A DNA stretch of 64,000 nt, taken from positions 1 through 64,000 of the IMG/VR virus record IMGVR_UViG_3300048623_000062, one strand, 5' to 3'. The position numbers were made by a program, and so were the translations under genes. The stretch comes from a virus. Its lineage: Duplodnaviria; Caudoviricetes. This document shows positions 20,400 through 36,683 of the stretch, piece by piece. How positions within the stretch are numbered: position 1 is the first letter of the stretch; the number at the start of each line of letters is the position of its first letter. A model generated the notes under the pieces. The model made no database searches, had not been told where the DNA came from, and saw nothing but the letters and a program-made list of their open reading frames with translations.

Positions 20400-21281
20400 T
20401 CAGGTGGGGCTCGAGGTGAGGGGGGAGACGAAGAACGTGATGCGATCGCCGGCCTGGAGCTCGGCGGTCGCGATGCACACGAACTCCGTCGTGGTCTGCT
20501 GGTCTCGCGGGATGTCGAAGGCGACGATCGCCCCGACACTCTGACAGGTGCACGTCACGCCGTAGACCGCGGTCTGCGCGGTCGGCAGCGGGATCGTGAG
20601 CTCGGACAGGTCCGGCTCCTCGCCGGTGACGATGTAGTCGAACACGACCAATGTCGATGTGGTACCGCCCCCGCCGCCCTCGCCGAGCGTGGTCGCGCCG
20701 ACGTTGACGACGGGCAGCCCGGGGTTGATGGGCGGCACGCCCGCGCGCTTGACGCGCATGAGGCGCGCCACGACCACCGTCGATTCGGCGTTCGGCCGGT
20801 AGAACGCGAATGGCTGCGCCCACTCGTCGCCGTCGACCGATACCTCGACGATCAGCGACCCGCGGAACGGGCCGCCGACCTGCACCGTTTTGAACAGGCC
20901 CAGCAGCGCCGAGCTCACGTCGACCGAGTCACCGACGCCGTTGCTGGCCGGCACCGGAAGTTCAACGAACGTCGCCCCGGCATCGGTCGCGCCGACGTGC
21001 ACCGAGCTCGTGCCGCCGACCCGGGTGTTGTACGCGGACACGCTCGCGCGCATCCACCGCGCGGCCACGGAGACCGTGATCGATCCGCTGTTGTGGATGG
21101 TGGTCAGCGACTGCCACGACCCGAGCGTCGGATCGTCGCTGTTGTTGAACTCGATGTTGATCGCCGAGCGCGCGGTCCCGACGACCACGACGGTCTTCGT
21201 GCCGCCGAACGTCGACACGTCGACCGCGGTTCCGTTGCCGTTTCCGAGCGGAACCGGAAGCTCGGTGAAGACATTGCTCAT
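20400..21281 (-). CDS. Putative virion protein, paralog of fibre N-terminal module
   Basis: VPLGNGNGTAVDVSTFGGTKT vs VPLGNGVGAATDVSTFGATKT; two tandem domains shared. Confidence 0.7.
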   Translation of the reverse strand: MSNVFTELPVPLGNGNGTAVDVSTFGGTKTVVVVGTARSAINIEFNNSDDPTLGSWQSLTTIHNSGSITVSVAARWMRASVSAYNTRVGGTSSVHVGATDAGATFVELPVPASNGVGDSVDVSSALLGLFKTVQVGGPFRGSLIVEVSVDGDEWAQPFAFYRPNAESTVVVARLMRVKRAGVPPINPGLPVVNVGATTLGEGGGGGTTSTLVVFDYIVTGEEPDLSELTIPLPTAQTAVYGVTCTCQSVGAIVAFDIPRDQQTTTEFVCIATAELQAGDRITFFVSPLTSSPT

Positions 21282-21892
21282 ACGTGTCGCCTCCGCTGAT
21301 AGAGGAGCCACAGGAACACCGCGGCCCCGCCGACGACCAACACCGCACCGACGCCGATTCCGGCCAGCGCCAGCCAGCCGAGCGGGTCGTCGTTGTTCGT
21401 GAAGTTGCTCTCACCGGCCGCGAAGTCCGGCACCATCTTCCGACGCACCTCCCAGTGCGTGTGGTTCGCCGAGCTCGTCACGCCGACCTGCTGGCCGGCG
21501 GCGACTCGAGCGCCCGCAGGTGCATAGGCGGCGGTCAGCGGCTCGAGGTGCGCCAGGAGGTGGAACTTGCCGCTGTCGCCCTGGATGATGATGAGCCAGG
21601 GGCCATAGCCAACGAACGGCGCGCTGTTGCCATCGGCCGTTGCGACCACCGTCCCGGATTCCGGCGCCACCACGGTCGTCCCCGCGAAGCCCGCGACGTC
21701 CACGCCAGGATGACGGCATGGGTACAGCCCGACGCCGCACGACCCGTCCGCAGGCGTCGACCTGACCTCGAGGTAGCCGCCATGCGCGCCGACCTGGAGC
21801 GGGTAGATCGGCGGCTGCGGCCTACCTGGCGCCGGCGCGGCTGTCTCAACGGGGGTCGCCCCCAGCGCCTGCGCGGCGCGGGCGTAGGTCAC
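21278..21892 (-). CDS. M23 (LytM-like) endopeptidase with C-terminal membrane anchor
   Basis: HPGVD (HxxxD), APESGTVV, GYG, AHL, HTHWE (HxH); C-terminal TM plus RRR. Confidence 0.85.
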   Translation of the reverse strand: MTYARAAQALGATPVETAAPAPGRPQPPIYPLQVGAHGGYLEVRSTPADGSCGVGLYPCRHPGVDVAGFAGTTVVAPESGTVVATADGNSAPFVGYGPWLIIIQGDSGKFHLLAHLEPLTAAYAPAGARVAAGQQVGVTSSANHTHWEVRRKMVPDFAAGESNFTNNDDPLGWLALAGIGVGAVLVVGGAAVFLWLLYQRRRHV

Positions 21893-21895
21893 GTC

Positions 21896-23962
21896 TCACC
21901 ACCCGTCCCTTTCGTTGAGTACGAAGTGGAAGGTGGCACCGCGATCGCTGATCTCGGACTCCGCGACCTCGTCGGGGTCGAGCGCGCCGATGAGGTCCGC
22001 GCGAGCGAGCACGAGCGCCCCGGTGCGGTTGAGCTCGACGAGTTTCTTCTTGAACTGGTCGTAGGTCATGCCGCCCAGCCGTGGATCGTCCTGGACGCGG
22101 CGCCAGATCGCCGAGACGAACACCTTGCTCCCGAAGCGGCCGTAGCCGCGTCCGTTGCGCTGGTCCTCGTCGGTCTTCTTGACCGCGTCGATGACCGCGT
22201 CGGCGACGCCGCCCACCGGCGCCACGACCGTCGCGGGCGCTGGACGCTGGACCACATGCCGAGTCACCGCCGGGGCCGGCCGCGCCGGGGAGCGCCGCGC
22301 AGCCTGATTGGGTTCGTTGACCACGAAGTGGTACGTCGCGCCGCGATCGTGAATCTCCGACCCGATCACCTCATTGTGGTCCATCGCGGCAACGAGGTCC
22401 GCGCGCGCCATCGTGAGCAAACGCTGGCGATGCGCCTCGAGCAGACGCCGCTTGAACTCCTCGGCGGACATCGAGGCGAACCGAGGGTAGTCCCGGAGGT
22501 CTCTCCAGATCGCCGCGATGAACACCTTCCGATCGCCGAATCGGCCGCGCGCCTCCCCCTCGACCTCGCTCTCGTCGCCGATCCCATCGGCCGCCACGTT
22601 GACCGCCTGGGCGAACTCCTCGATGGGCATCTCGCGCCGCGCAGACCGCGCAGGAGCCGCAGCCGGCGCATGCCCGAGACGCTGGCGATATGCCGCGTAC
22701 TGCAGCCGCGAGTCGCCCTCGAAGATACCGCCGGCGAGTTGCTCGTCGGTCAGCTTCACGTGCCGGCCATCCGCGCTGTCGAGGCTCAGCACTTTCTGCC
22801 GGCGCATGTCGTTCACGCCTGCGGTGAACTCCTCGTGCGAATACTGCGGCATCGCCTTGCGCAGGTCGTAGAGCAGTACGTAGTTGTGACCCTTGTCGAG
22901 CCGACGGAACGCCGTCTCGAAGTCGCGGGCGAAGTTCGCCGCGAACGCGCCGGGGTCCGGCAACGGGTCTGGCTTCACATGCGGCCCCGGCGCGGCGAGC
23001 AACCGGTCGTACTCGGCTGCCTCGCGCTCGTGGCGTCTCATGTCTCGCAAATCCGCGCGCGTCGCCCCGGTCTTGGTCGGCCGGGGGCGAGGCGGCGGGC
23101 TCAGCACTGCGTCGGGCGGTCGCGACAGCTTGACCGTCCGCGAGGCCACGGGCGACGGCGCACGCGCGGGCGAGCGAGGCGACTTCGGCTTCGACATCCG
23201 ATCCGTGTCGCGCGCGGGCCGCTTGGCGAAGATCACCTCCTTGAGGTCCTTGGCCAGCGCGCCGCCCTTGGCGAGGTATCGGTAGTGCTCGAACTCCGCC
23301 GCGGAGTTTCCGGTAAAGAACACAAACCGGTCGACGAGGTCCGGGCGATTCTCCTCCACCCAGTGAAACAGGTCGATGCCGCTCTTGTCGCCGAGCACAT
23401 CCACGTCGCTCACGATGAGGCCGACCATGTGGACCTTGATATTCGCGATCGCCGCGTCCACGTTGTCCGAGACGATGACCGGCGTGCCCTTGAAGATCCG
23501 CCCGAGCATCTTCGTGGTGCCGGCCTGCAGGACCGGATCGTCCTCGAGCAGGATGATGCGATCTTGGCTGTTCGCGGCGTGGACGTCTTGCTTGGCCGGG
23601 TTCTGCACCTCGGCGCCACCATCCCAGGTCAACTCGAGTTGGCCATCGCGGGACTCGAGCTCGGCCGTGAACGTCGGCACGCGGAGCCCGGCGCCATACA
23701 CCACCGAGTCCCACTCGCCACCGGCGCCCATCGCGTAGGACACCAGGATATCGCCGACGTCCGACGGACGGAGGTCCGACGCGGATCGGTGAAGTTGATC
23801 GGCGATGCCCACGAGGCCGGTGTGGTTCACCTCCTCGTAGAGGTGCGCGAGATCCTCGGCCGCCTTGCGCGCTGGCGCCGGCGCCTTGCCGCGGGTCTGC
23901 GATACGCTCTCCCAGAGCGCCTCGCTCATCTCATTGATCAGGCCGCCCCGAGACCACGTCAT
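21896..23962 (-). CDS. Multidomain protein: receiver-like domain plus repeated winged-helix-like domains
   Basis: IILLEDD...LIVSDV...FFTG...LAKG receiver motifs; two strong RFG.KVF..AIW...ARADL...SEI.DRGAT repeats and one weaker. Confidence 0.7.
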   Translation of the reverse strand: MTWSRGGLINEMSEALWESVSQTRGKAPAPARKAAEDLAHLYEEVNHTGLVGIADQLHRSASDLRPSDVGDILVSYAMGAGGEWDSVVYGAGLRVPTFTAELESRDGQLELTWDGGAEVQNPAKQDVHAANSQDRIILLEDDPVLQAGTTKMLGRIFKGTPVIVSDNVDAAIANIKVHMVGLIVSDVDVLGDKSGIDLFHWVEENRPDLVDRFVFFTGNSAAEFEHYRYLAKGGALAKDLKEVIFAKRPARDTDRMSKPKSPRSPARAPSPVASRTVKLSRPPDAVLSPPPRPRPTKTGATRADLRDMRRHEREAAEYDRLLAAPGPHVKPDPLPDPGAFAANFARDFETAFRRLDKGHNYVLLYDLRKAMPQYSHEEFTAGVNDMRRQKVLSLDSADGRHVKLTDEQLAGGIFEGDSRLQYAAYRQRLGHAPAAAPARSARREMPIEEFAQAVNVAADGIGDESEVEGEARGRFGDRKVFIAAIWRDLRDYPRFASMSAEEFKRRLLEAHRQRLLTMARADLVAAMDHNEVIGSEIHDRGATYHFVVNEPNQAARRSPARPAPAVTRHVVQRPAPATVVAPVGGVADAVIDAVKKTDEDQRNGRGYGRFGSKVFVSAIWRRVQDDPRLGGMTYDQFKKKLVELNRTGALVLARADLIGALDPDEVAESEISDRGATFHFVLNERDGW

Positions 23963-23974
23963 CGCTTTCGCCCT

Positions 23975-24499
23975 CTAGGCGTCCATCGCCCGGTTGTTGG
24001 TGATTCCGATGCGCAGCCGGCACAGCGACACGCCGCTGTGCAGCGCGCCCGCCACGTGCCTGTCGTCGCCCATCTCCCACGCGCATTCGAACGGCTCGAT
24101 CGAGAGACGCCCGATACCGCCGGCCGCCATCAAATCCGGTGACTGCGTCGCCAGGATCGTCGTGCGCATCGGATTGACCGCCGACGGGTCGAAGTCGATC
24201 GCCTTGCGATCCCCCGGAATCCGCGACTGCTTGCGACAGCGCGGACAGATGATGTGCGCGACCAGCGGCTCGCCGGGGATGGCGTAGACATCGACCGTCA
24301 AGAACTGGTCGCCGTACACCACCACCACCTCCTGCTTGCCTGCCGTCAGGCTGGTCGTCATCGAGATCCCGGTCTCCATGTCTCCGGCAATGCGCACGAC
24401 CTCGCGCTCCTTGCCACTGGCAAGCGAACCCGGCTTCACGCCCATCATGTCTTGCACGCGCGGGTCGCGGAGGTCGATGGAGAGCGAGTTCTTGGTCAT
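23975..24499 (-). CDS. Zn-binding hypothetical protein
   Basis: CPRC, distal C...C. Confidence 0.6.
   Translation of the reverse strand: MTKNSLSIDLRDPRVQDMMGVKPGSLASGKEREVVRIAGDMETGISMTTSLTAGKQEVVVVYGDQFLTVDVYAIPGEPLVAHIICPRCRKQSRIPGDRKAIDFDPSAVNPMRTTILATQSPDLMAAGGIGRLSIEPFECAWEMGDDRHVAGALHSGVSLCRLRIGITNNRAMDA
24411..24423. repeat. Dispersed palindrome copy
   Basis: cTTGCCACTGGCAAg; inside CDS (LASGK frame). Confidence 0.9.
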
Positions 24500-24509
24500 G
24501 GAGCCGAGT

Positions 24510-24773
24510 CTACTTCTTCAGGAGCAAGACGGCGCCGAGCCCGGCCACGCCGAGCAGGAGAAGCGTCGTGGTAGAGATCCCGCCCTGCTGGGCGGCCAGC
24601 GCCGCCGCGAGATCGCGGTTGGTCTGGGCAGCCGCGGCAGCCGCGCCCGCTGACTGCTGACTGCGGTTGTAGAAGTCGAGGACCGCCTTGGCGCCGCCGC
24701 CGATGTCGTCCCAGAAGTCACCGACCCCGGCGTACCCGGATCGGCTGATGAGGTTGTTTCGCGCGTACGCCAT
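24510..24773 (-). CDS. Small virion membrane protein, MAY...GVGD leader
   Basis: GGAG RBS; C-terminal TM LLLLGVAGLGAVLLLKK. Confidence 0.7.
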   Translation of the reverse strand: MAYARNNLISRSGYAGVGDFWDDIGGGAKAVLDFYNRSQQSAGAAAAAAQTNRDLAAALAAQQGGISTTTLLLLGVAGLGAVLLLKK

Positions 24774-24786
24774 GGTGGGTGTCTCC

Positions 24787-25188
24787 TTAGCCGCGCTTCT
24801 TGAGGACGAGCGCGAGCATGATGATACCGCCACCGATGGCGATCGCGGTAGTAGTAGACAGGCCGGTCTGGGGCTGCGGGGCGATGACGGTCGGCTGCTG
24901 GCCGGGGAGGAAGCGGAGGATGGAGTCCAGGATGCCGCCGCCCGCACTCATTCCCGCCGGGTGCGCCGGATCGGGATCCACGGCGCCCGGCGCGCGGTAC
25001 GTCGACCCGTCGGAGTTGAACGTCGTCATGCCGCCGTCCGGGGTCGCGCAGTAGTTGCCCGGCTTCCGGTAACCATCGCCGATGGGAATCGTCGAGCACT
25101 GGTCATCCGACGAGAACCCCCCGAACGCCCCGAGGACGCCCCCGAGCAGGGAGCGCTTGTTCTTGACGAGGACGCGCTTCATGTACAT
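24787..25188 (-). CDS. Virion membrane protein
   Basis: ATG overlaps upstream TGA; C-terminal TM plus KKR. Confidence 0.7.
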   Translation of the reverse strand: MYMKRVLVKNKRSLLGGVLGAFGGFSSDDQCSTIPIGDGYRKPGNYCATPDGGMTTFNSDGSTYRAPGAVDPDPAHPAGMSAGGGILDSILRFLPGQQPTVIAPQPQTGLSTTTAIAIGGGIIMLALVLKKRG

Positions 25189-25529
25189 CAGATCTTCCCC
25201 TTCTTCTTCGACAGGAGATAGTAAGCGAGGCCGCCGCCGGCCGCGAGGACGACGTAGGGCACGTAGTTGGTCTTTGGCTCGGGCTGCGCACCTTGCGCGC
25301 CGCCGCTCACGGCGCTCGAGAGCGCATCCTTGAGCCAGTCGAGCATGCTCGGGCCGCACGCGGCGCCAACGCGCTTGAACGGATGGTCGGCCGGAAACTG
25401 ATCGCACGGGATCCGCTTGGGGCCGGTGATGTCGATGGGCGGGTTGCTCGAGTTCGGGTCGAAGATCGTCGGATCGACCTCGTGAGGAGCGGTGACCGGA
25501 TCGCCCATGCCGCGTCGGTGGTAACTCAT
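25188..25529 (-). CDS. Virion membrane protein, MSY...GMGD leader
   Basis: C-terminal TM YVVLAAGGGLAYYLL-KKK. Confidence 0.7.
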   Translation of the reverse strand: MSYHRRGMGDPVTAPHEVDPTIFDPNSSNPPIDITGPKRIPCDQFPADHPFKRVGAACGPSMLDWLKDALSSAVSGGAQGAQPEPKTNYVPYVVLAAGGGLAYYLLSKKKGKI

Positions 25530-26275
25530 GAACTCTTCCGATCCTTGAGTAGGAGGTAGGCCCCCAGGACGGCGACACCGCCGACCAGGAGCACCGTGGT
25601 CATCGGGTATCCTGCGATCATGACGCCGTTCGCGTCTGGGATCTCCGGGCTGGGCGGAATGACGATCGGCCCATTGGGACCCATGACGACTCGGCCGCCG
25701 TCTGGAGTCGGGACCGCACCTCCTCCGCCACCACCACCGCTGCTTGGTACCGGGGGCTGCACGACAAGACCAGGACCAGGTGGTTGCGTCGGCGACGTGG
25801 GGGATGTTGGCGTCGTGGGTGACGTCGGGTTCTGGGTCGTCGCACCACGATGATCACGCACGATCGCGCCGGGGATCGGGGCCTTGGTTCCCGGCACGAA
25901 CCCGGGCGGGATCGCTGCGGGTGGCGGCGGCGGCGAATTCGGACTGTGATACGCGCCGGGCTGCAGCGTTCGCACGCCTCGCATGCCGGGGAGTGGAACC
26001 GGGTTTGCCGGAGGGGTTGGTGTTGGCGTACGGGTTGGAACCGGCGCTGGGCGACGGTCCGGAGCGCGGCTTCCGCCCGGCGATCGCCGATCTGGCGTGT
26101 CGCGATCGATGGCCCCGAGAGCCCCCGATGCGACCGCCGCCATGAGGCGATCTCGTGCGCGGGTCGCGCGCCCGACCTGAACCCGGCGGTAGCGGGTCGA
26201 CGATGACACCATGTCGGATGCGGCGATCGCCCCCACGCCGCGCGTCGCGCGGTCGCTATCTCTCGTGTACCCCAT
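25526..26275 (-). CDS. Pro-rich virion membrane protein, MGY...GVGA leader
   Basis: Pro/Thr-rich stalk; C-terminal TM. Confidence 0.7.
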   Translation of the reverse strand: MGYTRDSDRATRGVGAIAASDMVSSSTRYRRVQVGRATRARDRLMAAVASGALGAIDRDTPDRRSPGGSRAPDRRPAPVPTRTPTPTPPANPVPLPGMRGVRTLQPGAYHSPNSPPPPPAAIPPGFVPGTKAPIPGAIVRDHRGATTQNPTSPTTPTSPTSPTQPPGPGLVVQPPVPSSGGGGGGGAVPTPDGGRVVMGPNGPIVIPPSPEIPDANGVMIAGYPMTTVLLVGGVAVLGAYLLLKDRKSS

Positions 26276-26565
26276 TACCGTCGCCCTCGGCCGTGGTGCC
26301 CATGGCCGCCCCCATGGCCACCGCCCCGCCCTCTACCAGCACGATAGGACCCCCACGACGGCCCCCACGGCATGCCCCACCCAGCGGGCGGATCGTAGTC
26401 CATGTCCGCCGCCTCCACGTTCACCACGACCTGCGGGGCCGCAAACGGCGGCGACTGCGTGCCAGCCGACCCGGCCGTGAGCGCAGAGGTGGCCGCAGAC
26501 TTCTTGGACAGGTAGTAGAGCGCCACGGCGGCGCCACCCAGGATGAGCACGGTGGAAGTCTTCAT
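26275..26565 (-). CDS. Membrane protein with N-terminal TM and Gly/His/Arg tail
   Basis: MKTSTVLILGGAAVALYYLSKK. Confidence 0.65.
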   Translation of the reverse strand: MKTSTVLILGGAAVALYYLSKKSAATSALTAGSAGTQSPPFAAPQVVVNVEAADMDYDPPAGWGMPWGPSWGSYRAGRGRGGGHGGGHGHHGRGRR

Positions 26566-26879
26566 CGGTTCTTTCCGAGCTCGTACCCGATCAGCGCCGG
26601 CACACCGAACAGCGCGGCGAGCGCGAGTGGGTACACCCATTTGTTCTGCTGCGCGAACGCGTACCCGCGTAGCGCTGGCATCAGGCTTCGCAGTCCGGCG
26701 CCGCCTGCCAGGTTCGGCGGCGTCGTGCCGCACGAGATCACCGGCTCACCGCGCTCGACGCTACGCAGTTGCCCAGCGATGCACACCGCCTCATTGAAGT
26801 ACGGGTCGTTGACGACGTTCGCCGCCGCCGAGATGGTGTCGCCGATGCCGCCCAGAGATGTTCTGCGTTGATACGTCAT
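26562..26879 (-). CDS. Virion membrane protein, MTY...GIGD leader
   Basis: C-terminal TM. Confidence 0.7.
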   Translation of the reverse strand: MTYQRRTSLGGIGDTISAAANVVNDPYFNEAVCIAGQLRSVERGEPVISCGTTPPNLAGGAGLRSLMPALRGYAFAQQNKWVYPLALAALFGVPALIGYELGKNR

Positions 26880-26892
26880 TTGGTGCTGGTGT

Positions 26893-27012
26893 GAAGTCGG
26901 CTGAGGTCGCCCGCCCGCGCTATCGCATCCTTCCCGGGATTTTGGTGACGACGCGAAGACAGAAACGTCGCCCTCATTGCGCTCGCACCGGCGAGCGACC
27001 TCAGCCGACTTC
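26893..27012. repeat. 18-bp perfect inverted repeat enclosing further hairpins (intergenic)
   Basis: GAAGTCGGCTGAGGTCGC 26893-26910 and GCGACCTCAGCCGACTTC 26995-27012. Confidence 0.85.
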
Positions 27013-27014: not shown

Positions 27015-27464
27015 TCACCGGCCTCCTTTGCGCATGAGGAACACGACACCCACGACGCCAGCGATCAAAAGGAGCGTCGACCTCGACATCCCACCAATCT
27101 GGTCGTCGCCGGACGCGGCGGGCAGCCCCAGCGCGTCGGCCATGCCGGAGACGGCGTTCGTAATCTCGGCCATGCGAGACGACACGAACGAGACCGGGTT
27201 GGCGAATGCGGCGTTTGCCGCCTCGATCGCTAGGCGCGAACCCTCGTCGTGGAACTGCGTGAACGAGTCGGTCGCCTTCCGCTGATAGATCAGGACCGCG
27301 GCCATCGCGAGCTCGGGCGTAACCTGGTTGCCGACCGGCAGCGGCGCGGTGATGAACTGGTACGGCACCTTCGCGGCCATGAACCGATTGACCTGGCGCG
27401 CCAAAACAGCGGCCGGGCCGGTGGCCTGGACACTGTCATCTCCCATGGGGCGCAGGTAAGTCAT
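27015..27464 (-). CDS. Virion membrane protein, MTY...MGD leader
   Basis: C-terminal TM LLLIAGVVGVVFLM-RK. Confidence 0.7.
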   Translation of the reverse strand: MTYLRPMGDDSVQATGPAAVLARQVNRFMAAKVPYQFITAPLPVGNQVTPELAMAAVLIYQRKATDSFTQFHDEGSRLAIEAANAAFANPVSFVSSRMAEITNAVSGMADALGLPAASGDDQIGGMSRSTLLLIAGVVGVVFLMRKGGR

Positions 27465-27468: not shown

Positions 27469-28092
27469 TTAGAGGTTCGTGATGCGGTAGCCGATGAGGT
27501 CGACGTGCAGCGTGCCTTCGGTGGGAGGGACGGCGCTGTTCCAGGTGAAGGCGAGGTAGTTCGGGCGGAACACGATCGTCGCGTTCGGCGACCACATGGT
27601 CGGGACCGGACACGGCACGATGTTGTCGGGCCGAGAGAACAGCGGGCCGCGCGGCGCGTTCTGCATGTTGCGCTGCGCGCCGCCGTCCTGCATCTCGTAC
27701 ATGAGATCGATGATGTCGGTGCCGACCTGCTGCGTCGGTAGCGGGAAGGTGGACACCGGGCGCCACCGGCCGAGGTTCGTGGCGCCGCTCGGCCCGCTCG
27801 GCCGCCATAGCGCCATCGGATAGTGCGTCATGATAAACGGGCCATCCTGCGACACCGTGATGATGATCGGCGCGCCAGCCTGGCCCTCATCGGAGGCGGT
27901 GAAGGTGACCTCGCCAGCGAGCACGCTCTCGATGCGGCGCCCCGGGATCCGGTCGATCTCTTCCTGGACCGAGGCCGGGCGCTCGTTGAGTTGGTTGAAT
28001 GCCTGGGCCAGTTGACCGATCTGCGCCTGCAGAGTGGTCAGCGCGGTCTTGTGGCTGCGGAGGATCGCGGCTTCGGCTTGCGACAGTGCCAT
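27469..28092 (-). CDS. Putative single jelly-roll capsid protein 2
   Basis: 207 aa; N-terminal coiled coil then beta-rich body (VTF...QDGPF...LHVDLIGYRI); tandem with a second such gene. Confidence 0.55.
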   Translation of the reverse strand: MALSQAEAAILRSHKTALTTLQAQIGQLAQAFNQLNERPASVQEEIDRIPGRRIESVLAGEVTFTASDEGQAGAPIIITVSQDGPFIMTHYPMALWRPSGPSGATNLGRWRPVSTFPLPTQQVGTDIIDLMYEMQDGGAQRNMQNAPRGPLFSRPDNIVPCPVPTMWSPNATIVFRPNYLAFTWNSAVPPTEGTLHVDLIGYRITNL

Positions 28093-28228: not shown

Positions 28229-28804
28229 CTACTGGACGTCGCGGGTCTGGAGACCGTCGAGCATGAACATGATGTTCTTCACGTCGTCGGTCGCGCCGCT
28301 GTTGAGTTGGTCCAGCGCGCTCGTGGTGCCGATCGCGAAGAAGTCCGCCTGGGCGGCGAAGTTCTGGCGAACCGGCACGATGATCGGGCGGGCCAGCTTC
28401 AGGATCGACGCCTGCTCGGGCGTGCCGTTCGAGAACACCGACTGCGAGGAGTCGAAGCCCCACACGCCACCACCGGCCGGGAAGTACCAGCACGGCGCCT
28501 GGAACATCGGCTTGGTGCCGACGGTCAGGGTCCAGAACAACTGGCTGGTGACGTTCAGGTAGTTGTCGCGGCGGTTGGTGCCATCGAAGTACTCGAAGCA
28601 CCGGATCGCCAGGATCACGTACGTCTGATCCGACGCCAACTGGCCGGCGGTCTGGAGGTTGGTCAGCGCGAGGTTGCCGATGTTCGCGTTGCCGAACAGC
28701 TTCGTCGAGTTGACGATCGGCGTGGTGGGGTCACCCGTGGTGCGGATGAGGGTGTCCCAGAGGGGCTGGTGGAGCCGCTCGCGGTATCCATGGAGACGAG
28801 GCAT
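28229..28804 (-). CDS. Putative single jelly-roll major capsid protein 1
   Basis: 191 aa; HQPLWDT...LF..TNLQTAGQL...YVILAIR...MLDGLQTRDVQ pattern; strong AAGGA RBS, structured leader. Confidence 0.6.
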   Translation of the reverse strand: MPRLHGYRERLHQPLWDTLIRTTGDPTTPIVNSTKLFGNANIGNLALTNLQTAGQLASDQTYVILAIRCFEYFDGTNRRDNYLNVTSQLFWTLTVGTKPMFQAPCWYFPAGGGVWGFDSSQSVFSNGTPEQASILKLARPIIVPVRQNFAAQADFFAIGTTSALDQLNSGATDDVKNIMFMLDGLQTRDVQ

Positions 28805-28929: not shown

Positions 28930-30240
28930 TCAGCCGCCGAACTTGCCGGCGAAGATGCCGTTGTAGAGTTGGCCCGGGTTGTCGTAGCTCGTACCGGCGG
29001 CCGGGATCTGCTTGGTGAACGACCTCGCCGGCACGGGCGCGAGGAACGACTGCGTCGGCACCGGCGCGAGCAGGTTGCCACCGCCACCCATGAGGCCGCC
29101 CATCGTGCCGCCGAGCTCCTCTTCGACGCCGAGTTCCTCCTCGAGGCCGAGCTCTTCCTCGACGCCATCACCGACCGCGATGTAGTCGGACAGCGTCATG
29201 CTGTCATTGATGGGCGTCGCGCCGACCGCGATGTAGTCGCCCATCTGGACGTAGTCGGACAGGCCGATCATCGACTTGACGCTCGCCGGAGCGAACGATC
29301 GGATGATGGACTCGAGCGCGCCCAGGCCGGTGCCCAGCAGGATGGCGTTCTTGTGCTTCGCCAGGAACCCCACCTTGCCAGCGCCCCAGTTCGCGAGCGC
29401 CATCGCACCGACCGACAGCACCGGGCCGGCGGCCGTACCGAGGAACGTCGCGCGCGCCGCGACCGAGCTCACGACGAACTTGCTGCCGTACAGCGCGGCG
29501 AACACCGGGATGGCGCTCTTGGCGATGTCGATCAGCCCCCCGAACATGCCGGGGTTGCGACGGTAGCGGCGGTGGCCACCACGGCGCATGCGCCGCGCGC
29601 CACGGCGGCGGCGCCGCACGGACCCACGCCGACGACGCCGGCTGCGCCGCCGTCCCGGGTTCGAGGCGTACGCGCCGGGGTGCGGAACACGGAGGGTGCG
29701 GGCGCTATGCGCCGAGTGCGTGCGCGTACTGCGCCGCGTGCGCGAGCTCTTGCGGCGCCGACGACGGCGCTTCGGAGCGCTCGCCTTGCGTGCGCGGCGC
29801 CGACGACGGCGCTTCGGAGCGCTCGCCTTGCGTGCGCGGCGCCGACGGGTCCGGCCGATGCCGCCGACCTTGCCGGCCTTCCGACGAGCTGCCCAGCGCC
29901 GCTTCATGGCGCGAGACCGCTTCGATGATTTCTTCCGCTTCGCCATAGTAGCTTTGCTCCTGCGGGCTCGACGGCCACGCTTTGTGCTGGTCGACTTGTG
30001 CGCGCGCCTGCGCTTGCGAGTTGGACTCTTCTTGGATGCGCGGCGGGCCTTCCAATACCGCGCAAGCGCGGCGGGCTGCCGGCGCTTCCTGCGCGACCCG
30101 CCGGCTTTAAGATGCGCCAGGTAGCGCTTGGATAGCGCGCGCCGCTTTCGGCGGGCTGGGTTCTTGATCACCGCTCTGCCGCGGACCCGAAGCCCGCGAC
30201 GCTTACCGTTGACGAAGAGGATGCCCACCTGATCGGACAT
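28930..30240 (-). CDS. Arg/Lys-rich core/DNA-condensing-like protein with hydrophobic middle and acidic C-terminus
   Basis: N-terminal half dominated by R/K, three NP motifs, 42-bp tandem repeat at 29752-29847, DYIAVG repeats, EEELG repeats. Confidence 0.65.
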   Translation of the reverse strand: MSDQVGILFVNGKRRGLRVRGRAVIKNPARRKRRALSKRYLAHLKAGGSRRKRRQPAALARYWKARRASKKSPTRKRRRAHKSTSTKRGRRARRSKATMAKRKKSSKRSRAMKRRWAARRKAGKVGGIGRTRRRRARKASAPKRRRRRRARKASAPKRRRRRRKSSRTRRSTRTHSAHSARTLRVPHPGAYASNPGRRRSRRRRRGSVRRRRRGARRMRRGGHRRYRRNPGMFGGLIDIAKSAIPVFAALYGSKFVVSSVAARATFLGTAAGPVLSVGAMALANWGAGKVGFLAKHKNAILLGTGLGALESIIRSFAPASVKSMIGLSDYVQMGDYIAVGATPINDSMTLSDYIAVGDGVEEELGLEEELGVEEELGGTMGGLMGGGGNLLAPVPTQSFLAPVPARSFTKQIPAAGTSYDNPGQLYNGIFAGKFGG

Positions 30241-30260
30241 CGAGGGTGGACATACTTAAG

Positions 30261-30515
30261 TCAACCCCCTATTTCGTCTTTCTTGCCACTGTCGTGACCG
30301 TCATCGGTCGGCAAGAAATCGCGCAGGACGATCACGAGACTGTCCTCATCGTCCAGCTTTTGATAGCTGCCAGGCTGGGTTAGACCGTCCAGCGCTTTGG
30401 ATAGTTGGTCGGCGGCACGGCCGATGCTCAAGTACGCGTCGATGGCACGGACGCACGCGGGGGATGCGCTGAGTTCTTGGCCGCCGCTACCCTCGGCAAA
30501 TCTGACGAACGACAT
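30261..30515 (-). CDS. Hypothetical protein
   Basis: ORF track, operon context. Confidence 0.5.
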   Translation of the reverse strand: MSFVRFAEGSGGQELSASPACVRAIDAYLSIGRAADQLSKALDGLTQPGSYQKLDDEDSLVIVLRDFLPTDDGHDSGKKDEIGG

Positions 30516-31034
30516 CTAGATATCCTTCCGTCGCCCGGTTAGGCGATCGCTGATCTTGCGAAGTGCGTTGCCGAGTTTCTCGTCGGCATCTGCGGCGGTC
30601 TTCGCGACGGTCTCCATGTTCTGGATGTACTCGCGGCGCTGGATGTTCTCCGCCTCGCGGGCGTCCTCGTAGAGCTTGCGGAGGTTTTCCGCCTCGCGGT
30701 GCGCGTACTCGGCGCGGAGCCGGTCATGGATGCCGTCGAGTCGAACGCGCTCCGCGGCCCACACCTCGCGCTCCTTGGCGTGATCGATGATGGCCTGATG
30801 TCGCGCCCCCTCGACTTCGGATATCCGCTTGCTGTGGGCGGTGGAAAGCGTCTCGAGTTGCTTGGCGTGCTCGGCGTCGAGTTTCTCGCGCGACTCCTCA
30901 GACTTCGCCATGCGGCCCGCGTAGTGCTTGAACAAAAAACCGACTGTCAGGGCTAGCGCGGTGACGGCGACGATCAGCGCGGAGTCGAGCGTGGACAGGG
31001 TGGACGGGTCGATATTCGGTGTCAGCGGGGTCAT
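30516..31034 (-). CDS. N-terminal TM plus coiled-coil protein
   Basis: ATG at 31034 overlaps upstream TGA; LIVAVTALALTVGFLF. Confidence 0.65.
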   Translation of the reverse strand: MTPLTPNIDPSTLSTLDSALIVAVTALALTVGFLFKHYAGRMAKSEESREKLDAEHAKQLETLSTAHSKRISEVEGARHQAIIDHAKEREVWAAERVRLDGIHDRLRAEYAHREAENLRKLYEDAREAENIQRREYIQNMETVAKTAADADEKLGNALRKISDRLTGRRKDI

Positions 31035-31555
31035 CCGTCGATTCCTCTCGGGTAGACGCCAAGCCCGCCGCCCCACATCATCGCGATCACCTTCGTGCGC
31101 GCCTCGATCACGATCAGGCAGTTGCCATCCGGCGTGGCGTAGAGCTCGGGATAGCCGCCCTTGCGGGTGGCGCGCATCTCCTGCTTGAACCCATCGGGCA
31201 TCTCGTACGAGAAGCCCAGGTTGATACCCAGACGGGTGAGCGCCGTGGCGTCGCGGAACTTCGCGGGCACATCCACCGCCGGACCGCCATCGGCATCCGC
31301 CGACGTGGGCAGGTACGTGTTCACGCCCGCGTCGTGCTCGTGGATGTAGTTGACCGGAGACCTGGGCTTGCGCAGTGTCTCCGGGTCGACCTTGGGCGAG
31401 CGGTAGGTCACCCACAGCGCCTTGCCAGCTCGGTACATGGTGCGCGGCATCTCGAATCCGCGACCGACGATGATGCGTTTGTGCCCGTAGCGGTGGAACT
31501 CCTCGTACTTGAGGATCGCCGCGTCGAGATCTTCGTTGTCATCGTCGTCGTGCAT
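31031..31555 (-). CDS. Putative virion structural protein
   Basis: YEEFH...VTYRSPK...YIHEH...PELY...GG.LGV..RGIDG; lies in structural block. Confidence 0.6.
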   Translation of the reverse strand: MHDDDDNEDLDAAILKYEEFHRYGHKRIIVGRGFEMPRTMYRAGKALWVTYRSPKVDPETLRKPRSPVNYIHEHDAGVNTYLPTSADADGGPAVDVPAKFRDATALTRLGINLGFSYEMPDGFKQEMRATRKGGYPELYATPDGNCLIVIEARTKVIAMMWGGGLGVYPRGIDG

Positions 31556-31557
31556 GA

Positions 31558-32283
31558 TCAGTCCTTGGCGAGGTACCGCTCCCACAGCAAGTACCCGCCC
31601 ACGACAAGCGCGGTGTACTTCAGGACTCGGTATAGGTCTGGGAGGTCGTTGGCCACCAGGACCGCGGTCTCTCCGATCGCCAGCACCGCGCCAATCAGCA
31701 GTTTTGCCGTCGACCATGCCTTGTCGAACGCGCGCTGAAAGGTGGCCAGGCTCCCGATCCACCACGGCGCGATGCACCCAACGACCGCGGCGGTTACCAT
31801 GCTCGACGAGCACGTCGCGAGCGAATCGACCACCCAGCGCTTGAGGCCCTGGGCGTTGACGAGTCGGATGCCGTTCTGATCGGCGTTGTTAGCCGCAGCC
31901 AGATAGCCGAGCGACCGCTCGCCCACGCGCGCCAGGTCGTTGACCGCGCGCATGATGCTGTCCTGCGATGCATTCGGCTCCGCGCGCGCCTGGTCGATCG
32001 CCACCTGCACGGTCCTCACCGTATCCATGACGTTGGCGACCTGCGTCCGAATCTCGTCGGGCGTATAGAACCCTGTCGGATTCCAGTTCGCCGACAAGTC
32101 GTTCACCTTGGCATCCATCGGAGCAAAGGTGGCATTCGCAAGCGCGATGCATTGCGCCTCGTCGCTGGGCCGTGTCGTCGGCAAGCCGAGATCGGCGTTG
32201 AGGTTGTTCATGAAGTCACCCCACCAGTCGCCGAGACTGGTGGGCTTGCGTAGACGCGTGCGCACTCGTCTGGTGTACGTCAT
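31558..32283 (-). CDS. Helical virion membrane protein, MTY...SLGD leader
   Basis: C-terminal TM; GGAG RBS before ATG at 32283. Confidence 0.7.
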   Translation of the reverse strand: MTYTRRVRTRLRKPTSLGDWWGDFMNNLNADLGLPTTRPSDEAQCIALANATFAPMDAKVNDLSANWNPTGFYTPDEIRTQVANVMDTVRTVQVAIDQARAEPNASQDSIMRAVNDLARVGERSLGYLAAANNADQNGIRLVNAQGLKRWVVDSLATCSSSMVTAAVVGCIAPWWIGSLATFQRAFDKAWSTAKLLIGAVLAIGETAVLVANDLPDLYRVLKYTALVVGGYLLWERYLAKD

Positions 32284-32591
32284 CGGAGAATTCTCCATGC
32301 AAGATATCCGAGCGCCGCGTACATCAGTAGCGATCGCGACGACAGCGCTTCGTCAGACCCGTCGAGGCTCGCGACACGGCCTTGCGGCAGTTCGCCGCTG
32401 CCTACCTTCGTCGCTCCCACGGGGAGTTTCCACGACGCACGCGACGGGGACACGCCAAAGTCGCCCTCGAGCCCCGGCCCCACAGGCTCGGGCGTCGCCT
32501 TCGACGGCGACCCGGCGTGAGTGCCGCCGGGTCCGGGCGCCTCGTAGTAGTCGTAGGCGCGCCGCGTGTAGTCGTAGACCGAGTACCGCAT
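32280..32591 (-). CDS. Virion membrane protein
   Basis: MRYSVYDY...; C-terminal TM. Confidence 0.65.
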   Translation of the reverse strand: MRYSVYDYTRRAYDYYEAPGPGGTHAGSPSKATPEPVGPGLEGDFGVSPSRASWKLPVGATKVGSGELPQGRVASLDGSDEALSSRSLLMYAALGYLAWRILR

Positions 32592-32596
32592 GGGGC

Positions 32597-32944
32597 CTAC
32601 CGGCGCCGCTTCTTTCCGAACATCTTCCATGCGACGAAGAGGCCAACCACGGCCAGCGTGGCCATACCGCCGGGCACCGACTCGACGATGCCGGCCAAGG
32701 CGCCACCGCCGCAGCCGCACGACCCGTGACAACTGCAGTCGCCCATCGGCGCCTGCCGCGTCACGCCGATCGGCTCGGGCGCACCGGGCGCCGGCAAGAT
32801 CGTTGATCCGTCGAGCGACGTCCCCTCGAGCGAGCCGAGACCACAGCATCCGAGCGCGGTCGCGTCGGCCGCGCGCGTCTGCTGCGGGATGCCGGTCTTC
32901 CAGTTGATGATGGAGCCACCACCGCGTTGATACGCAAACTTCAT
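32597..32944 (-). CDS. Cys-containing virion membrane protein (GLGS and MGD motifs)
   Basis: C-terminal TM plus KKRRR. Confidence 0.65.
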   Translation of the reverse strand: MKFAYQRGGGSIINWKTGIPQQTRAADATALGCCGLGSLEGTSLDGSTILPAPGAPEPIGVTRQAPMGDCSCHGSCGCGGGALAGIVESVPGGMATLAVVGLFVAWKMFGKKRRR

Positions 32945-33228
32945 GGGCAACCCTTCTTCTGCCCGAAGCCCTGGGCGATGGAAATTGGGACTGCGGCCAC
33001 TGGCACGAGCCGACCAGCGAGCCCGTAGATGAGCGCCCAGATGATCGACCCCGTGCGACGGTACCCGTGGTAGGTGAGCGCGATCGCGGATGCCGTCTTG
33101 ACCGGCTCGCTGGTCACGGCGCGGCGCAGGCTGAACGGTTCTGGGGCGGCGTCGGCTCCGAGCCCGTTGATCCCGACCGGCGCGACCACGATGCCGCCCC
33201 CACGAGTCCTGTATCGCTGATAGCGCAT
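32941..33228 (-). CDS. Virion membrane protein, MRY...GLGA leader
   Basis: GGGAGG RBS; hydrophobic C-half. Confidence 0.65.
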   Translation of the reverse strand: MRYQRYRTRGGGIVVAPVGINGLGADAAPEPFSLRRAVTSEPVKTASAIALTYHGYRRTGSIIWALIYGLAGRLVPVAAVPISIAQGFGQKKGCP

Positions 33229-33860
33229 TACTTCCTCCCTCGCTTGCGCTTGTTCATGAGCAGGTAGCCGATGCCACCAGCCACGCCGAGCAGGGCGAGT
33301 TTTTCGATGCCGGAGAGCGCAGCCAGCGACGCCATGACGCCGGCGTCCGGTGCCACGATCGTCTTGCCGCTCTTGGTCTGGATGGTGGGCACCGAGACCG
33401 CGAGCGGCCCCGAGACCGTCGCCGGCACGCCCAGCGTATCGGCCATCGCCCGCACCTGGGCGGCCAGGACATCGACGTCGGGCGCGACGCCCATGCAGGT
33501 CGACGGGTCGCCCATCACCGAGCCGGCGGACGCCGCCTGCACGCGGCGAAACAGCGCCAGCGTCGCGGGGCCGACCGAGCCGTCCACGACGATCTTGCCG
33601 AACCCCTTGGCCTGGGCGACGCGGTTGAGTTGCCGCTGAAACTCCTGCACCACCTTGAGAGCGGGGAAGTTCATCGGCTTGCACACGCCGTTCACCGTCA
33701 CGAAGTCCGCGGACGACGTGGTCGATCCGCCGTTGGCGGTCTGGTTCACGTTGTCCGACGGATCCGGCTCGACGGCCGAGAACGGTCCCAGGGCCTTGAG
33801 CAGGTCCGCGAGGCCGCCGTTGTCGTCGCCGACCGCGGAGCGATGTGCGAGGTACGTCAT
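33228..33860 (-). CDS. Peptidoglycan-binding-like domain with C-terminal TM, MTY...AVGD leader
   Basis: VQEFQRQLN...VDGSVGPAT motif. Confidence 0.7.
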   Translation of the reverse strand: MTYLAHRSAVGDDNGGLADLLKALGPFSAVEPDPSDNVNQTANGGSTTSSADFVTVNGVCKPMNFPALKVVQEFQRQLNRVAQAKGFGKIVVDGSVGPATLALFRRVQAASAGSVMGDPSTCMGVAPDVDVLAAQVRAMADTLGVPATVSGPLAVSVPTIQTKSGKTIVAPDAGVMASLAALSGIEKLALLGVAGGIGYLLMNKRKRGRK

Positions 33861-34330
33861 CGAGACCTCCGCTTCGAGAGCATGCAGTAGAGGATGTAGG
33901 CCCCGATCCCGTAGGTGACGATGCCGCCCGGAACTTCCGGCAGAAAGTCGAGCGGACCATCGACCGCAACCGGGAACGTCATCGGCTGGTAGGCCATCGC
34001 GACGGTCGGCTGGATACGGAAGCCCTTGCGCTCCGCATCGATCAGCGCCTTCACGTTGGCACCCCAGGACATTCGCTCCCAGTTCGGGCCAGCAACCTGC
34101 TCTAGAGCACGCTCAGTCGCCTCATCGAGCCGCCCGCTCACGAGCACGTCCATCGCCCCCAGCTTCCAGAGCGCTCGCTGGATCTGCTGGACGAGGATGA
34201 TGATCTGGCTGGCCTTGGGGTCCGTGGTGGCCGGAGCGACCATCATGTACGGGATGATGCCCGTAGCGTTGAAGTTCCCGACGCCGATGGCGGTCAGGAG
34301 CTCGCGCGATTCCATCGATGTCTCGCTCAT
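33857..34330 (-). CDS. Peptidoglycan-binding-like domain with C-terminal TM
   Basis: VQQIQRALWKLG...VSGRLDEATERAL. Confidence 0.65.
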   Translation of the reverse strand: MSETSMESRELLTAIGVGNFNATGIIPYMMVAPATTDPKASQIIILVQQIQRALWKLGAMDVLVSGRLDEATERALEQVAGPNWERMSWGANVKALIDAERKGFRIQPTVAMAYQPMTFPVAVDGPLDFLPEVPGGIVTYGIGAYILYCMLSKRRSR

Positions 34331-36054
34331 GACTTCTTCTTTTTCTTGGTCAGGAGGGCCACTGCTAGCACGCCGCCGCCCGCAACCAGCACCAGCGGCA
34401 GCACTGATTTCTTAACCACGACCGGCGGCGGTGGTGGCGGCGGTGGGGCGCCGTTGCACGCGCGCGCCGCCGCGCCAGCACCGGCATTTCCGGCCGCTGC
34501 GCCCGCAGCCGGATTGCCAACATAGGCCCCGGCAACGGCCCCGGCTGCGGCGCCGACGCCTGGCGTCGAGACGAGGTCGCACGTGAGGTCGCCGACCTTG
34601 CGGACGCCATCGGCGATGGTCTTGCCAACGACATGCGAGATCGCCTGCCCGATGCCGAGCGGGTCCGCGATCTTGATGAGCGTCTGTGGAAGCTTGATGA
34701 CCGTGTTGATGATCGACCCCCACGTGCTCACGTCCGGCACCTTGGACAGCCACACCCGCAACGCCTGTGGGTTCTCCGGTGACCAGTCCTTATAGTCAGT
34801 CCCAGGCCAAAAAATCATGTGCAACTGCAGGTTGTTCCCGTTGTTGGGATCCTGGAGGTATGCGACCGCCGTCCCAGGGTTGAACATATTCCTGGCCGTC
34901 AGGAGGTTCACCTTGGTTTCTGGCCCGATCCCGACTCTCGCGAGCATAGCGAGTTCTTCGGGCCGGAACGGCCGACGATGCTCGAGGTCCTTCAGGGGGC
35001 CATCCGGCTTGGTCAGCAAAAGTTCCCCGATGGCCTTCACCTGCTCATTCGTGAGCGTGCGAAGGTCGCGGGCCGCAAAATCCGGCTTGCGGCCACCTCG
35101 GTCAAGGTGCAGCGGCTGTCCCGATCCGGCGGCCACCGTAGGGCTCTGAAAGTTCATTCCGCCGATCGAGAACGTTCCCGGCGGTGGCGGTGGCTCTGAG
35201 ATGCCGCCCGGCGCACCGGTGCTCTTGGTGACGGTCCACGGTGTCCCGTCCGCCTTGCATGGCATCGGATTCGGGGCCACGCCCACGCGCACACGCACGA
35301 GATACCCACCCTTCCCATCGTCGACCCAGTTGTATCCCTCGGGCGGCAGGCAGTTGAGGGCCGGCTTGGCCGGCGCTGCCGTGTCGCCCATCGCCCCTGG
35401 TGAACGCATGTAGCACCCCAGGCCCAGGGACGTACCAGCCTGGGGTGCGACGCGACGAGCGCCCTTGGTGACGAGCTCGGCCGTGACGCCAGCGGCCATC
35501 GCGCGCGCGATTGCCAGTGGCAAGGCGTCCGCGGGCGATACACCATGCGCGAGGTAGCGACGAAAGATGTCCTGCGTCCGGTCGTACAGCGACTTGTCGA
35601 TGCGGCCCATGATCCCGCGGAGCGCGGTCTCCTGCTGGGCGCGCGGCAGCGTCGAGATCTGCGACAGGATCGCCTGAGCCGCCTTGGCGCCGTAGGTCTC
35701 CACCGCGGGGGGCAGTGGCTCGTCGCCGCTCAGCGGCTGCACCGTGACTTGACGGCCGCCGCCCGGCAGCGGGCGAGCCGCGACGAGCTTCGGGCGCTGG
35801 TTCAGCCACGGCGGGATCTTGGGGCCGGAATACGACCCCGAGGGCTGCCACTTCGTGGTGAACGTGCCCTGCCCGTACCCTTCATCGTCGATGTACTGCG
35901 GCACGGCGAAGCCGCCGTTGCCGACGCGCGGGTCATCGTAGGTGCCGCGCGGCATCTGCTTGGTGATGAACGCGCGGCGCTCGAGGCCCTCGTCGTCCAC
36001 GTTGTCCGGGATCGCGTACCCCGAGGACCATGGTGGTGGTAGGTTGTATGCCAT
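34327..36054 (-). CDS. Large virion membrane protein
   Basis: 575 aa; internal GAMGD; poly-Pro then C-terminal TM plus KKKKK. Confidence 0.7.
   Translation of the reverse strand: MAYNLPPPWSSGYAIPDNVDDEGLERRAFITKQMPRGTYDDPRVGNGGFAVPQYIDDEGYGQGTFTTKWQPSGSYSGPKIPPWLNQRPKLVAARPLPGGGRQVTVQPLSGDEPLPPAVETYGAKAAQAILSQISTLPRAQQETALRGIMGRIDKSLYDRTQDIFRRYLAHGVSPADALPLAIARAMAAGVTAELVTKGARRVAPQAGTSLGLGCYMRSPGAMGDTAAPAKPALNCLPPEGYNWVDDGKGGYLVRVRVGVAPNPMPCKADGTPWTVTKSTGAPGGISEPPPPPGTFSIGGMNFQSPTVAAGSGQPLHLDRGGRKPDFAARDLRTLTNEQVKAIGELLLTKPDGPLKDLEHRRPFRPEELAMLARVGIGPETKVNLLTARNMFNPGTAVAYLQDPNNGNNLQLHMIFWPGTDYKDWSPENPQALRVWLSKVPDVSTWGSIINTVIKLPQTLIKIADPLGIGQAISHVVGKTIADGVRKVGDLTCDLVSTPGVGAAAGAVAGAYVGNPAAGAAAGNAGAGAAARACNGAPPPPPPPPVVVKKSVLPLVLVAGGGVLAVALLTKKKKKS
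35511..35523. repeat. Dispersed palindrome copy
   Basis: TTGCCAGTGGCAA inside CDS. Confidence 0.9.
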
Positions 36055-36065
36055 TTCGTTGTCCT

Positions 36066-36683
36066 TTAGGCCGCCACCGGCCAGGTCGCCCCGGCCTTGA
36101 CGCGAGAGAGCATCTGCGGGGTCTTCTCTGCCGCCACGGGGTCGAGCACGATGTGCGTGCCGGTTCGCGGCTCGAGGGCGCGCGTGAACACGTGGGAGTA
36201 TTGCGGTTGCCCCTGGAAGAACATCCGCTGAAACGCGACGGTGGCGAAGTCAGCTCGACCGCCAACCGCGATCACCGCAGCTGCCAGCCAGCACGCCATG
36301 TCGTCGCAGTCGAGCGACGGCCGGTGACCGGCCATGATCTGCTTGCTGATCAGGTGGGGGGCGCGCACGAGCTCGGTGCGGCGCGGGTCGCGCATGTACC
36401 GCGTGCGCTGCAGCAGGAACTGGTACAGCGCCAGATACTCGGACGTGTAGTCTTTGCTGTCGAGCCACTCGCAAACGATCTCGGCGAGTTGCCGCGTCTC
36501 GAAGTGGTCCGCGTCGCCCAGCACGGCGCGCCGCATGACGTCGATGGTCTGCGGCGCGCCTGCGTACCCGATGCGCGACGTCGGCGCCTGGTCCGGGAGC
36601 CAGAATAGACGCGCCCCCCCATAGCCCATCCCCGACTGGGGGACGAGCGGGGCGAGGCGGGCGCTATTCGGGTTGGTGGGCAA
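36066..36683 (-). CDS. Transglutaminase-like cysteine protease (putative maturation protease)
   Basis: LDCDDM (Cys), YSHVF (His), VLDP (Asp) triad; RYMRDP..TELV upstream motif. Confidence 0.8.
   Translation of the reverse strand: MPTNPNSARLAPLVPQSGMGYGGARLFWLPDQAPTSRIGYAGAPQTIDVMRRAVLGDADHFETRQLAEIVCEWLDSKDYTSEYLALYQFLLQRTRYMRDPRRTELVRAPHLISKQIMAGHRPSLDCDDMACWLAAAVIAVGGRADFATVAFQRMFFQGQPQYSHVFTRALEPRTGTHIVLDPVAAEKTPQMLSRVKAGATWPVAA

Follow-up and report, generated by a model that had tools for sequence, protein, structure and literature searches.

In bacteriophage T4, a capsid targeting sequence (CTS) is removed by the virus-encoded prohead protease gp21, a serine enzyme whose fold is not that of the transglutaminases and which cuts at Leu/Ile-x-Glu. 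The T4 CTS is a short conserved N-terminal leader that directs diverse proteins into the assembling particle (PMC3012670). In adenoviruses and poxviruses, many virion precursors share a short Gly-containing site that is cut by a clan CE cysteine protease, (Met/Ile/Leu)-x-Gly-Gly↓x in the case of adenovirus AVP and Ala-Gly↓x in the case of poxvirus I7. The peptides released by these cleavages are basic. Among transglutaminase-fold peptidases, the periplasmic, calcium-dependent LapG, with its Cys-His-Asp fold, removes the N-terminal module of a single adhesin substrate at a small-residue site, the di-alanine site of LapA (PMC10990149). In lasso-peptide pathways, leaders are removed by C96 peptidases that are assisted by a separate leader-binding element, and two features of the leader are recognised: a distal motif, which that element binds, and a conserved residue next to the cut (PMC10885120). 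Here we analysed the first 64 kb (the window) of an 81,143-bp virus record from IMG/VR (IMGVR_UViG_3300048623_000062; estimated completeness 94%), in which a block of genes at 21278-36683 encodes otherwise unrelated proteins that share an N-terminal sequence pattern, hereafter the tag, beside a gene for a transglutaminase-fold cysteine enzyme. As far as sequence can tell, the shared tag and the adjacent enzyme suggest an undescribed sorting, perhaps trimming, of viral-membrane proteins. In the literature that we searched, we came across no account of such a tag in membrane-containing phages, nor of a virion enzyme with the transglutaminase fold.

The GC content of the window is ~65%, and genes were called from codon-position GC, with the start codons of the block curated by hand; 118 proteins were called genome-wide. 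All genes from 39561 down to 21278 lie densely packed on the minus strand. An earlier note on this DNA had listed nine N-termini with the shared pattern, and all nine were located at minus-strand start codons (21892, 24773, 25529, 26275, 26879, 27464, 32283, 33228 and 33860); two more Met-x-Tyr starts were found at 36054 and 32591. Met-x-Tyr opens 11 of the 24 genes of the block but only 2 of the 96 in the remainder of the 81-kb genome, a strong enrichment in the late or structural block (Fisher p=1.3e-7), and the binomial probability of its occurrence in the block is 2.8e-12 at a Tyr frequency of 2.4%. A hydrophobic-Gly-Asp/Ala site follows within residues 4-40 in 9 of these 11 proteins, where 16% would be expected (P=3.5e-6). 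In the whole tag, residue 3 is Tyr or, in rare cases, Phe; a spacer, Arg-rich in most cases, separates it from the second element, small-hydrophobic-Gly-(Asp>Ala>Gly). Most of the listed starts either follow a Shine-Dalgarno-like sequence or show coupling to the preceding stop codon.

All 11 Met-x-Tyr proteins also carry a hydrophobic C-terminal segment, mostly followed by a basic tail; 7 of the 11 pass a strict pattern of a helix and a short, usually basic tail, and the other 4 were judged by eye. This shared C-terminal end, which the earlier note did not stress, resembles that of bacterial tail-anchored proteins. A Sec or Tat signal peptide was rejected on reading the tags by eye: they lack a hydrophobic core and can span a mere 9 residues, and Arg-Arg is frequent in them but not constant. 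Beyond the window, at 70895-71164 (+) of the 81-kb genome, a small protein with a C-terminal anchor begins with an Arg-rich stretch that ends in Leu-Gly-Asp, and the leader of its homologue in a related genome (L010, 20113-20448) ends in Leu-Gly-Ala. Since the former lies far from the block, tag-like leaders are not limited to the block.

When the 191-amino-acid (aa) protein of the block was used as a query, eight related viral contigs with 74-100% identity were found, two of which are complete genomes with terminal repeats (82.6 and 86.3 kb). The enzyme as a query added further relatives, namely a virus of 43% GC (L011), three ~73-89-kb contigs in bins of metagenome-assembled genomes (MAGs) and a more distant fragment (L016). 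The three binned relatives (L020, L021, L022) are near-complete and lie inside MAGs assigned to Peribacteria, Galbitalea and Myxococcales, a placement that is probably mis-binning and carries no host information. Over 12 genomes, 90 open reading frames (ORFs) combine a Met-x-Tyr start with a C-terminal anchor, and 64 of them have a Gly site in residues 4-45. The logo of this site is [Gly/Ala/Pro/Ser]-[Met/Leu/Val/Ile]-Gly-[Asp 40, Ala 13, Gly 7, Ser 4], the Gly lies at residue 7-39 (median 18), and the net charge is +2.6 for the leader versus -1.7 for the next 15 residues.

The conservation in homologous genomes that the earlier note had left to be checked was thus found, in orthologues from these 12 related genomes. 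Within orthologous families the two ends of the tag are constant while the length and sequence of the spacer vary, an arrangement consistent with a pair of recognition elements and an intervening linker, such as cleavable leaders have. The tag of the M23 peptidase is kept in four orthologues and always ends in Leu-Gly-Ala; in variant tags, residue 3 is Phe or the Tyr stands at residue 2. The genomes that carry the tag span 43% to 69% GC. Because codons and flanking nucleotides differ between the genes and the tag is present in the 43%-GC relative, it acts at the protein level, and a nucleotide-level signal was rejected on the same grounds.

Tag-like units also occur inside proteins, as had been noted for the 575-aa protein, the 436-aa basic protein and the outlying gene at 12446-12622, and all of these copies are present. 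In the basic protein, Tyr-Arg-Arg-Asn-Pro-Gly-x-Gly-Asp, which resembles a whole tag, lies exactly at the junction between the protamine-like and hydrophobic parts in all 8 aligned orthologues, and a related form of this unit is retained in the L011 orthologue. Three Tyr-x-x-hydrophobic-Gly-Asp/Ala repeats lie near the C-terminus of the same protein. The 575-aa protein has a conserved hydrophobic-Gly-Asp/Ala-Asp site between its conserved N-terminal domain and a variable domain. One protein of a relative (L021, 14282-14656) carries two tandem tag-like units, each ending in Ser-Met-Gly-Asp/Ala.

The enzyme gene has three operon genes upstream and the first tagged gene directly downstream. The Cys, His and Asp motifs reported earlier for 36066-36683 are present and conserved: Cys108 and His146 do not vary among 17 close and 40 distant homologues and Asp163 hardly varies, the three following the order Cys-His-Asp on the transglutaminase core. 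PF01841 was matched by 27 of the 40 distant homologues (best E=1.3e-16). The AlphaFold2 (AF2) model of the enzyme (predicted local distance difference test score, pLDDT, 78.5) matches 3kd4, a putative protease (Z 14.0, root-mean-square deviation 3.1, 148 aligned), the true transglutaminases TG3, FXIII and TG2 (Z 12-13), 3isr, another putative cysteine protease (Z 11.7), PNGase (Z 9.5-9.8) and LapG (Z 9.1-9.3), and Foldseek also matched it to the pseudomurein endoisopeptidase PeiP. The model and the conserved residues together establish a transglutaminase core fold with a triad. The enzyme has 537 homologues, the best 120 of which are 70-97% identical and all without a name, many of them on contigs of 75-104 kb, and as judged by these 120 it is the best-conserved protein of the module; a full HMMER search gave 680 representative relatives. 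Every complete relative examined has the enzyme, and two fragments (L008 and L009) lack the region only because the contigs are incomplete. A tblastn search of deposited phages with the enzyme gave no match.

The enzyme itself may start with Met-Gly-Tyr at 36629, but a tag is improbable here, since many homologues have this Gly-Tyr-Gly-Gly in the interior of the protein. About 1/3 of the aligned homologues have a variable N-terminal extension that ends in Ser-Gly-hydrophobic-Gly just before the conserved Tyr-Gly-Gly, and this could be a self-processing site of the enzyme. A complex prediction for residues 20-187 of the enzyme and the N-terminal 40 residues of the tagged 105-aa protein, with alignments of 17 and 8 rows, respectively, and run without controls, scored 0.01 against a mark of 0.32, which we take as evidence neither way.

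A link to a cultured virus is provided by phage SSIP-1, in which an internal membrane and two types of capsid protein are present (PMC6356626). The enzyme profile matches SSIP-1 gp34 at 114 bits; gp34 is annotated as structural, retains the whole triad and has a C-terminal anchor. Gly-hydrophobic-Gly occurs in the first 50 residues of 4 of the 57 SSIP-1 proteins, all encoded in the structural module; three of the four have C-terminal anchors and two (gp37 and gp53) are annotated as structural. SSIP-1 resembles this virus in having an enzyme homologue near proteins with an N-terminal Gly-hydrophobic-Gly and C-terminal anchors, whereas its genome is 43.8 kb, gp34 has an anchor of its own and no SSIP-1 protein has a Met-x-Tyr start. 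When profiles of the block families were searched against the SSIP-1 genome, the enzyme alone was shared and no other family was detectable. A tblastn search of deposited phages with gp34 returned SSIP-1 itself and one weak match only.

We tentatively favour the interpretation that virion-membrane proteins carry the tag as an assembly tag and that the transglutaminase-fold enzyme recognises it and probably cuts it at the Gly. The block would encode membrane proteins of the virion, including the M23 peptidase, the 575-aa protein and many small proteins that are otherwise unrelated. Each tagged protein would be anchored in the membrane by its C-terminal helix, usually with a basic tail, and the tag would be the assembly signal that marks it for the virion membrane. 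The enzyme, encoded just upstream, would recognise the tag and probably cut it at the Gly, releasing a basic leader and leaving an acidic mature N-terminus. This interpretation is favoured because two conserved elements flank a free spacer with a switch from basic to acidic at the site, because tag-like units lie at domain junctions, because the enzyme is unusually conserved, occurs in every complete relative and is annotated as structural in SSIP-1, and because LapG and the lasso-peptide C96 enzymes are precedents for transglutaminase-fold peptidases that remove N-terminal pieces. The need of the C96 peptidases for a separate leader-binding element would explain why the tag is bipartite. The virus itself looks tailless and probably contains lipid. 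A more far-reaching version, which we regard as possible but doubtful, is a dedicated virus-encoded leader system in which the bipartite N-terminal tag selects tail-anchored proteins for an internal particle membrane and a transglutaminase-fold cysteine peptidase within the virion removes it, releasing basic peptides, the pairing of tag and enzyme being ancient and common to ~80-kb soil viruses and SSIP-1.

The closest functional analogue of such a tag in phages is the T4 CTS. Tailed T4 loads soluble cargo onto a scaffolding core, whereas the cargo that would be loaded here is membrane-anchored and the candidate enzyme that may cut the tag has the transglutaminase fold. No prohead-protease family was found by Pfam or PHROGs in the proteins scanned. 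The likeness to AVP and I7 drawn in the earlier note holds as a functional analogy only, because those enzymes belong to a different protease clan and to eukaryotic viruses: neither the clan CE fold nor the AVP or I7 sites were seen, the logo here being small-hydrophobic-Gly-Asp/Ala/Gly, with a hydrophobic residue directly before the Gly and a second, aromatic element at the N-terminus. As to LapG, one of the 40 enzyme homologues matched the LapG/BTLCP family (Peptidase C93, PF06035) at E=0.0088 and the window enzyme did not, and no signal peptide was seen on reading the sequence of the viral enzyme. The lasso-peptide C96 system differs in that its substrates are small peptides and not membrane proteins; the lasso-type Pfam family was absent among the matches of the 40 homologues, and neither a RiPP recognition element (RRE) nor a cyclase was recognised in the block.

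Several observations weigh against the assembly tag that is cut by the enzyme. The virion location of the tagged proteins, the action of the enzyme on the tag and the cleavage of the tag are all inferred. The window enzyme itself has no Pfam match at E<=0.1, and a relative without the enzyme, which could have served as a negative control, was looked for and not found among the relatives examined. Cross-linking transglutaminases (Z 12-13) are no farther from the fold than proteases are, wall-lytic PeiP is similar to it too, and the fold does not tell protease from cross-linking or wall-lytic activity; the earlier claim of a transglutaminase-like Cys protease is borne out for fold and triad, and proteolysis is not singled out. 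A simple cut site also leaves the fixed aromatic at residue 3 unexplained. In L011, the C-terminal repeats of the basic protein read Glu-Tyr-Val, with the Tyr kept and the Gly-Asp lost, which speaks against a pure cut-site interpretation, and in the more distant L016 group Met-x-Tyr is largely lost while the anchors and an N-terminal hydrophobic-Gly-Asp/Ala partly persist.

The fixed aromatic and the Tyr-only repeats are better explained by the main and close rival, which we consider somewhat unlikely: the tag would be an uncut docking or sorting motif, both elements of which bind the inner capsid face or an assembly chaperone and gather tail-anchored proteins into the future virion membrane patch, the basic spacer lying on acidic lipid or protein and the enzyme having another role. 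Two fixed elements around a free spacer are what a linear binding motif could look like, and the C-terminal helix and basic tail would place the N-termini in the cytoplasm, facing the capsid. Many proteins also have an amphipathic acidic segment after the Gly-Asp, and the Gly-Asp could be a helix cap. However, tag-like units at internal junctions and the sharp basic-to-acidic switch are more typical of propeptides, and no binding partner was identified. It seems improbable to us that the tag is cut by some other protease, either the tagged M23 metallopeptidase or a host enzyme, and that the transglutaminase-fold protein is a virion-associated cell-wall endopeptidase for entry, like PeiP/PeiW, or a true transglutaminase that cross-links particle proteins. 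The M23 domain of the block is clear (E=1.5e-12) and its family cuts next to Gly, but phage M23 enzymes usually act on peptidoglycan (PG) and this one is itself tagged. An entry enzyme would be expected to be membrane-anchored and structural, as the SSIP-1 homologue is, and the block has another protein resembling a PG-binding domain, in addition to the structural matches of the enzyme to PeiP and cross-linking transglutaminases; on the other hand, a GH25 muramidase that includes a PG-binding domain is already encoded in the genome, the tags have no conserved Gln or Lys pointing to cross-linking, and the very high conservation of the enzyme would fit one with many substrates.

Common descent of a duplicated family of small membrane proteins, with chance or membrane insertion, and no dedicated recognition system, as the reason why their ends were kept, appears very improbable. 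Several tagged genes are indeed small and adjacent and vary in number between genomes, and one cluster joins paralogues, but the tag is also found on the M23 peptidase and on the 575-, 241- and 210-aa proteins, which show no similarity in the stretch between their ends, and both ends are conserved while the spacer turns over in genomes of 43% to 69% GC. The assembly tag recognised by the enzyme is in line with the processing or sorting signal for membrane virion proteins proposed earlier, which is supported in part by the enrichment, the conservation, the C-terminal anchors, a real transglutaminase-fold enzyme and its structural SSIP-1 homologue.

Among the other proteins of the block, two conserved untagged ones are capsid candidates (Table 1). 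The AF2 model of the 191-aa protein is all-beta with low confidence (pLDDT 57.7), and its best matches are weak (Z 5.0-5.7); several of them are jelly-roll capsid proteins, and the matches are no more than generic beta-sandwich or jelly-roll ones. A protein-atlas look-up gave unannotated viral clusters only. Viruses with two single-jelly-roll capsid proteins (Sphaerolipoviridae-like) served as the comparison for this protein and the conserved 207-aa protein as candidates, and the low-confidence 191-aa model was the one compared. A 236-aa paralogue of the 191-aa protein, 53% identical over the first 58 residues, is encoded at 53865-54575 (+) and is followed at 54593-56662 by two C-terminally anchored proteins and one protein that starts with Met-Ser-Tyr; 53865-56662 resembles another small cluster of structural type, encoded on the opposite strand. 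Two relatives (L004 and L006) likewise have variable paralogues of the 191-aa protein.

Pfam and PHROGs scans of most proteins of the block gave only the M23 match, a weak receiver domain and weak PG-binding matches, and those of the rest of the genome gave an integrase, the GH25 muramidase with its PG-binding domain, a glycosyltransferase and a sugar epimerase/dehydratase. In the proteins scanned, Pfam and PHROGs recognised neither a portal or terminase nor a packaging ATPase, and a strict Walker-A scan for a packaging ATPase in the 118 called proteins found no motif. Shine-Dalgarno-like sequences and wall-lytic enzymes indicate a bacterial host. The integrase is a tyrosine integrase (PF00589; 59858-60766, -) and the muramidase fused to the PG-binding domain is the likely endolysin (57683-58597, -); the virus may be temperate. 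Two minus-strand genes, at 10102-11277 and 13875-15140, have a weak group-1 glycosyltransferase match (E about 1e-3) and a clear match to an NAD-dependent sugar epimerase/dehydratase, and their sequences suggest virus-encoded glycan modification. A 943-aa ORF at 16801-19632 (-), where the GC-based gene caller wrongly favoured antisense ORFs, contains tandem repeats of ~123-129 nt (41-43 aa) at roughly 17.8-18.6 kb and is possibly a repeat-rich spike or fibre.

Table 1 Genes of the tag block and one small gene outside it, in descending order of position
Feature	Position	Strand	Remark
Transglutaminase-fold Cys-His-Asp enzyme, 187-205 aa, start TTG 36683 or ATG 36629	36066..36683	-	candidate tag-recognising or tag-cutting enzyme
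575-aa protein, Met-Ala-Tyr start, C-terminal helix and Lys tail	34327..36054	-	internal hydrophobic-Gly-Asp site
157-aa C-terminally anchored protein, untagged	33857..34330	-	weak peptidoglycan-binding match
210-aa tagged tail-anchored protein	33228..33860	-	orthologue tags 12 to 23 residues to Gly-Asp
95-aa tagged protein, Met-Arg-Tyr ... Leu-Gly-Ala, hydrophobic C-terminus	32941..33228	-	
115-aa tail-anchored protein, variant tag with Phe in place of Tyr at residue 3	32597..32944	-	
103-aa protein, Met-Arg-Tyr start, conserved Tyr-rich N-terminus with no nearby Gly-Asp, hydrophobic C-terminus	32280..32591	-	
241-aa tagged protein, long Arg-rich spacer to Leu-Gly-Asp, hydrophobic C-terminus	31558..32283	-	
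436-aa protein, protamine-like basic N-terminal half and hydrophobic middle	28930..30240	-	
191-aa highly conserved beta-rich protein, untagged, candidate major capsid protein	28229..28804	-	
207-aa conserved protein, untagged, candidate second capsid protein	27469..28092	-	conserved in 8 genomes
149-aa tagged tail-anchored protein, shortest tag (9 residues)	27015..27464	-	orthologue tags up to 29 residues
105-aa tagged protein, hydrophobic C-terminus	26562..26879	-	site Leu-Gly-Gly here, Met-Gly-Asp in most orthologues
249-aa tagged Pro-rich tail-anchored protein, Met-Gly-Tyr ... Val-Gly-Ala	25526..26275	-	
113-aa tagged tail-anchored protein, 10-residue tag	25188..25529	-	
133-aa tail-anchored protein, variant tag (Tyr at residue 2, Phe-Gly-Gly)	24787..25188	-	canonical tag in orthologues
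87-aa tagged tail-anchored protein	24510..24773	-	
204-aa M23 peptidase, tagged (GTG start, Leu-Gly-Ala), C-terminal anchor	21278..21892	-	PF01551 E=1.5e-12
58-aa small membrane protein outside the block, Tyr-Val-Gly-Asp near the N-terminus	12446..12622	-	conserved in L005 and L008

To our knowledge, it is still unexplained how membrane-containing phages pick their own membrane proteins from the host membrane. If the more far-reaching version above is true, no maturation or sorting code would have been described before this one in bacterial viruses that contain a membrane. A role in the virion would also be added to those of transglutaminase-fold enzymes. The tag is short and conserved and looks transplantable, and together with its candidate enzyme it is directly testable because a homologue of the enzyme is present in cultured SSIP-1. 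If the tag loads proteins into particles, foreign membrane proteins might be loaded in the same way, much as soluble cargo has been loaded by means of the T4 CTS.

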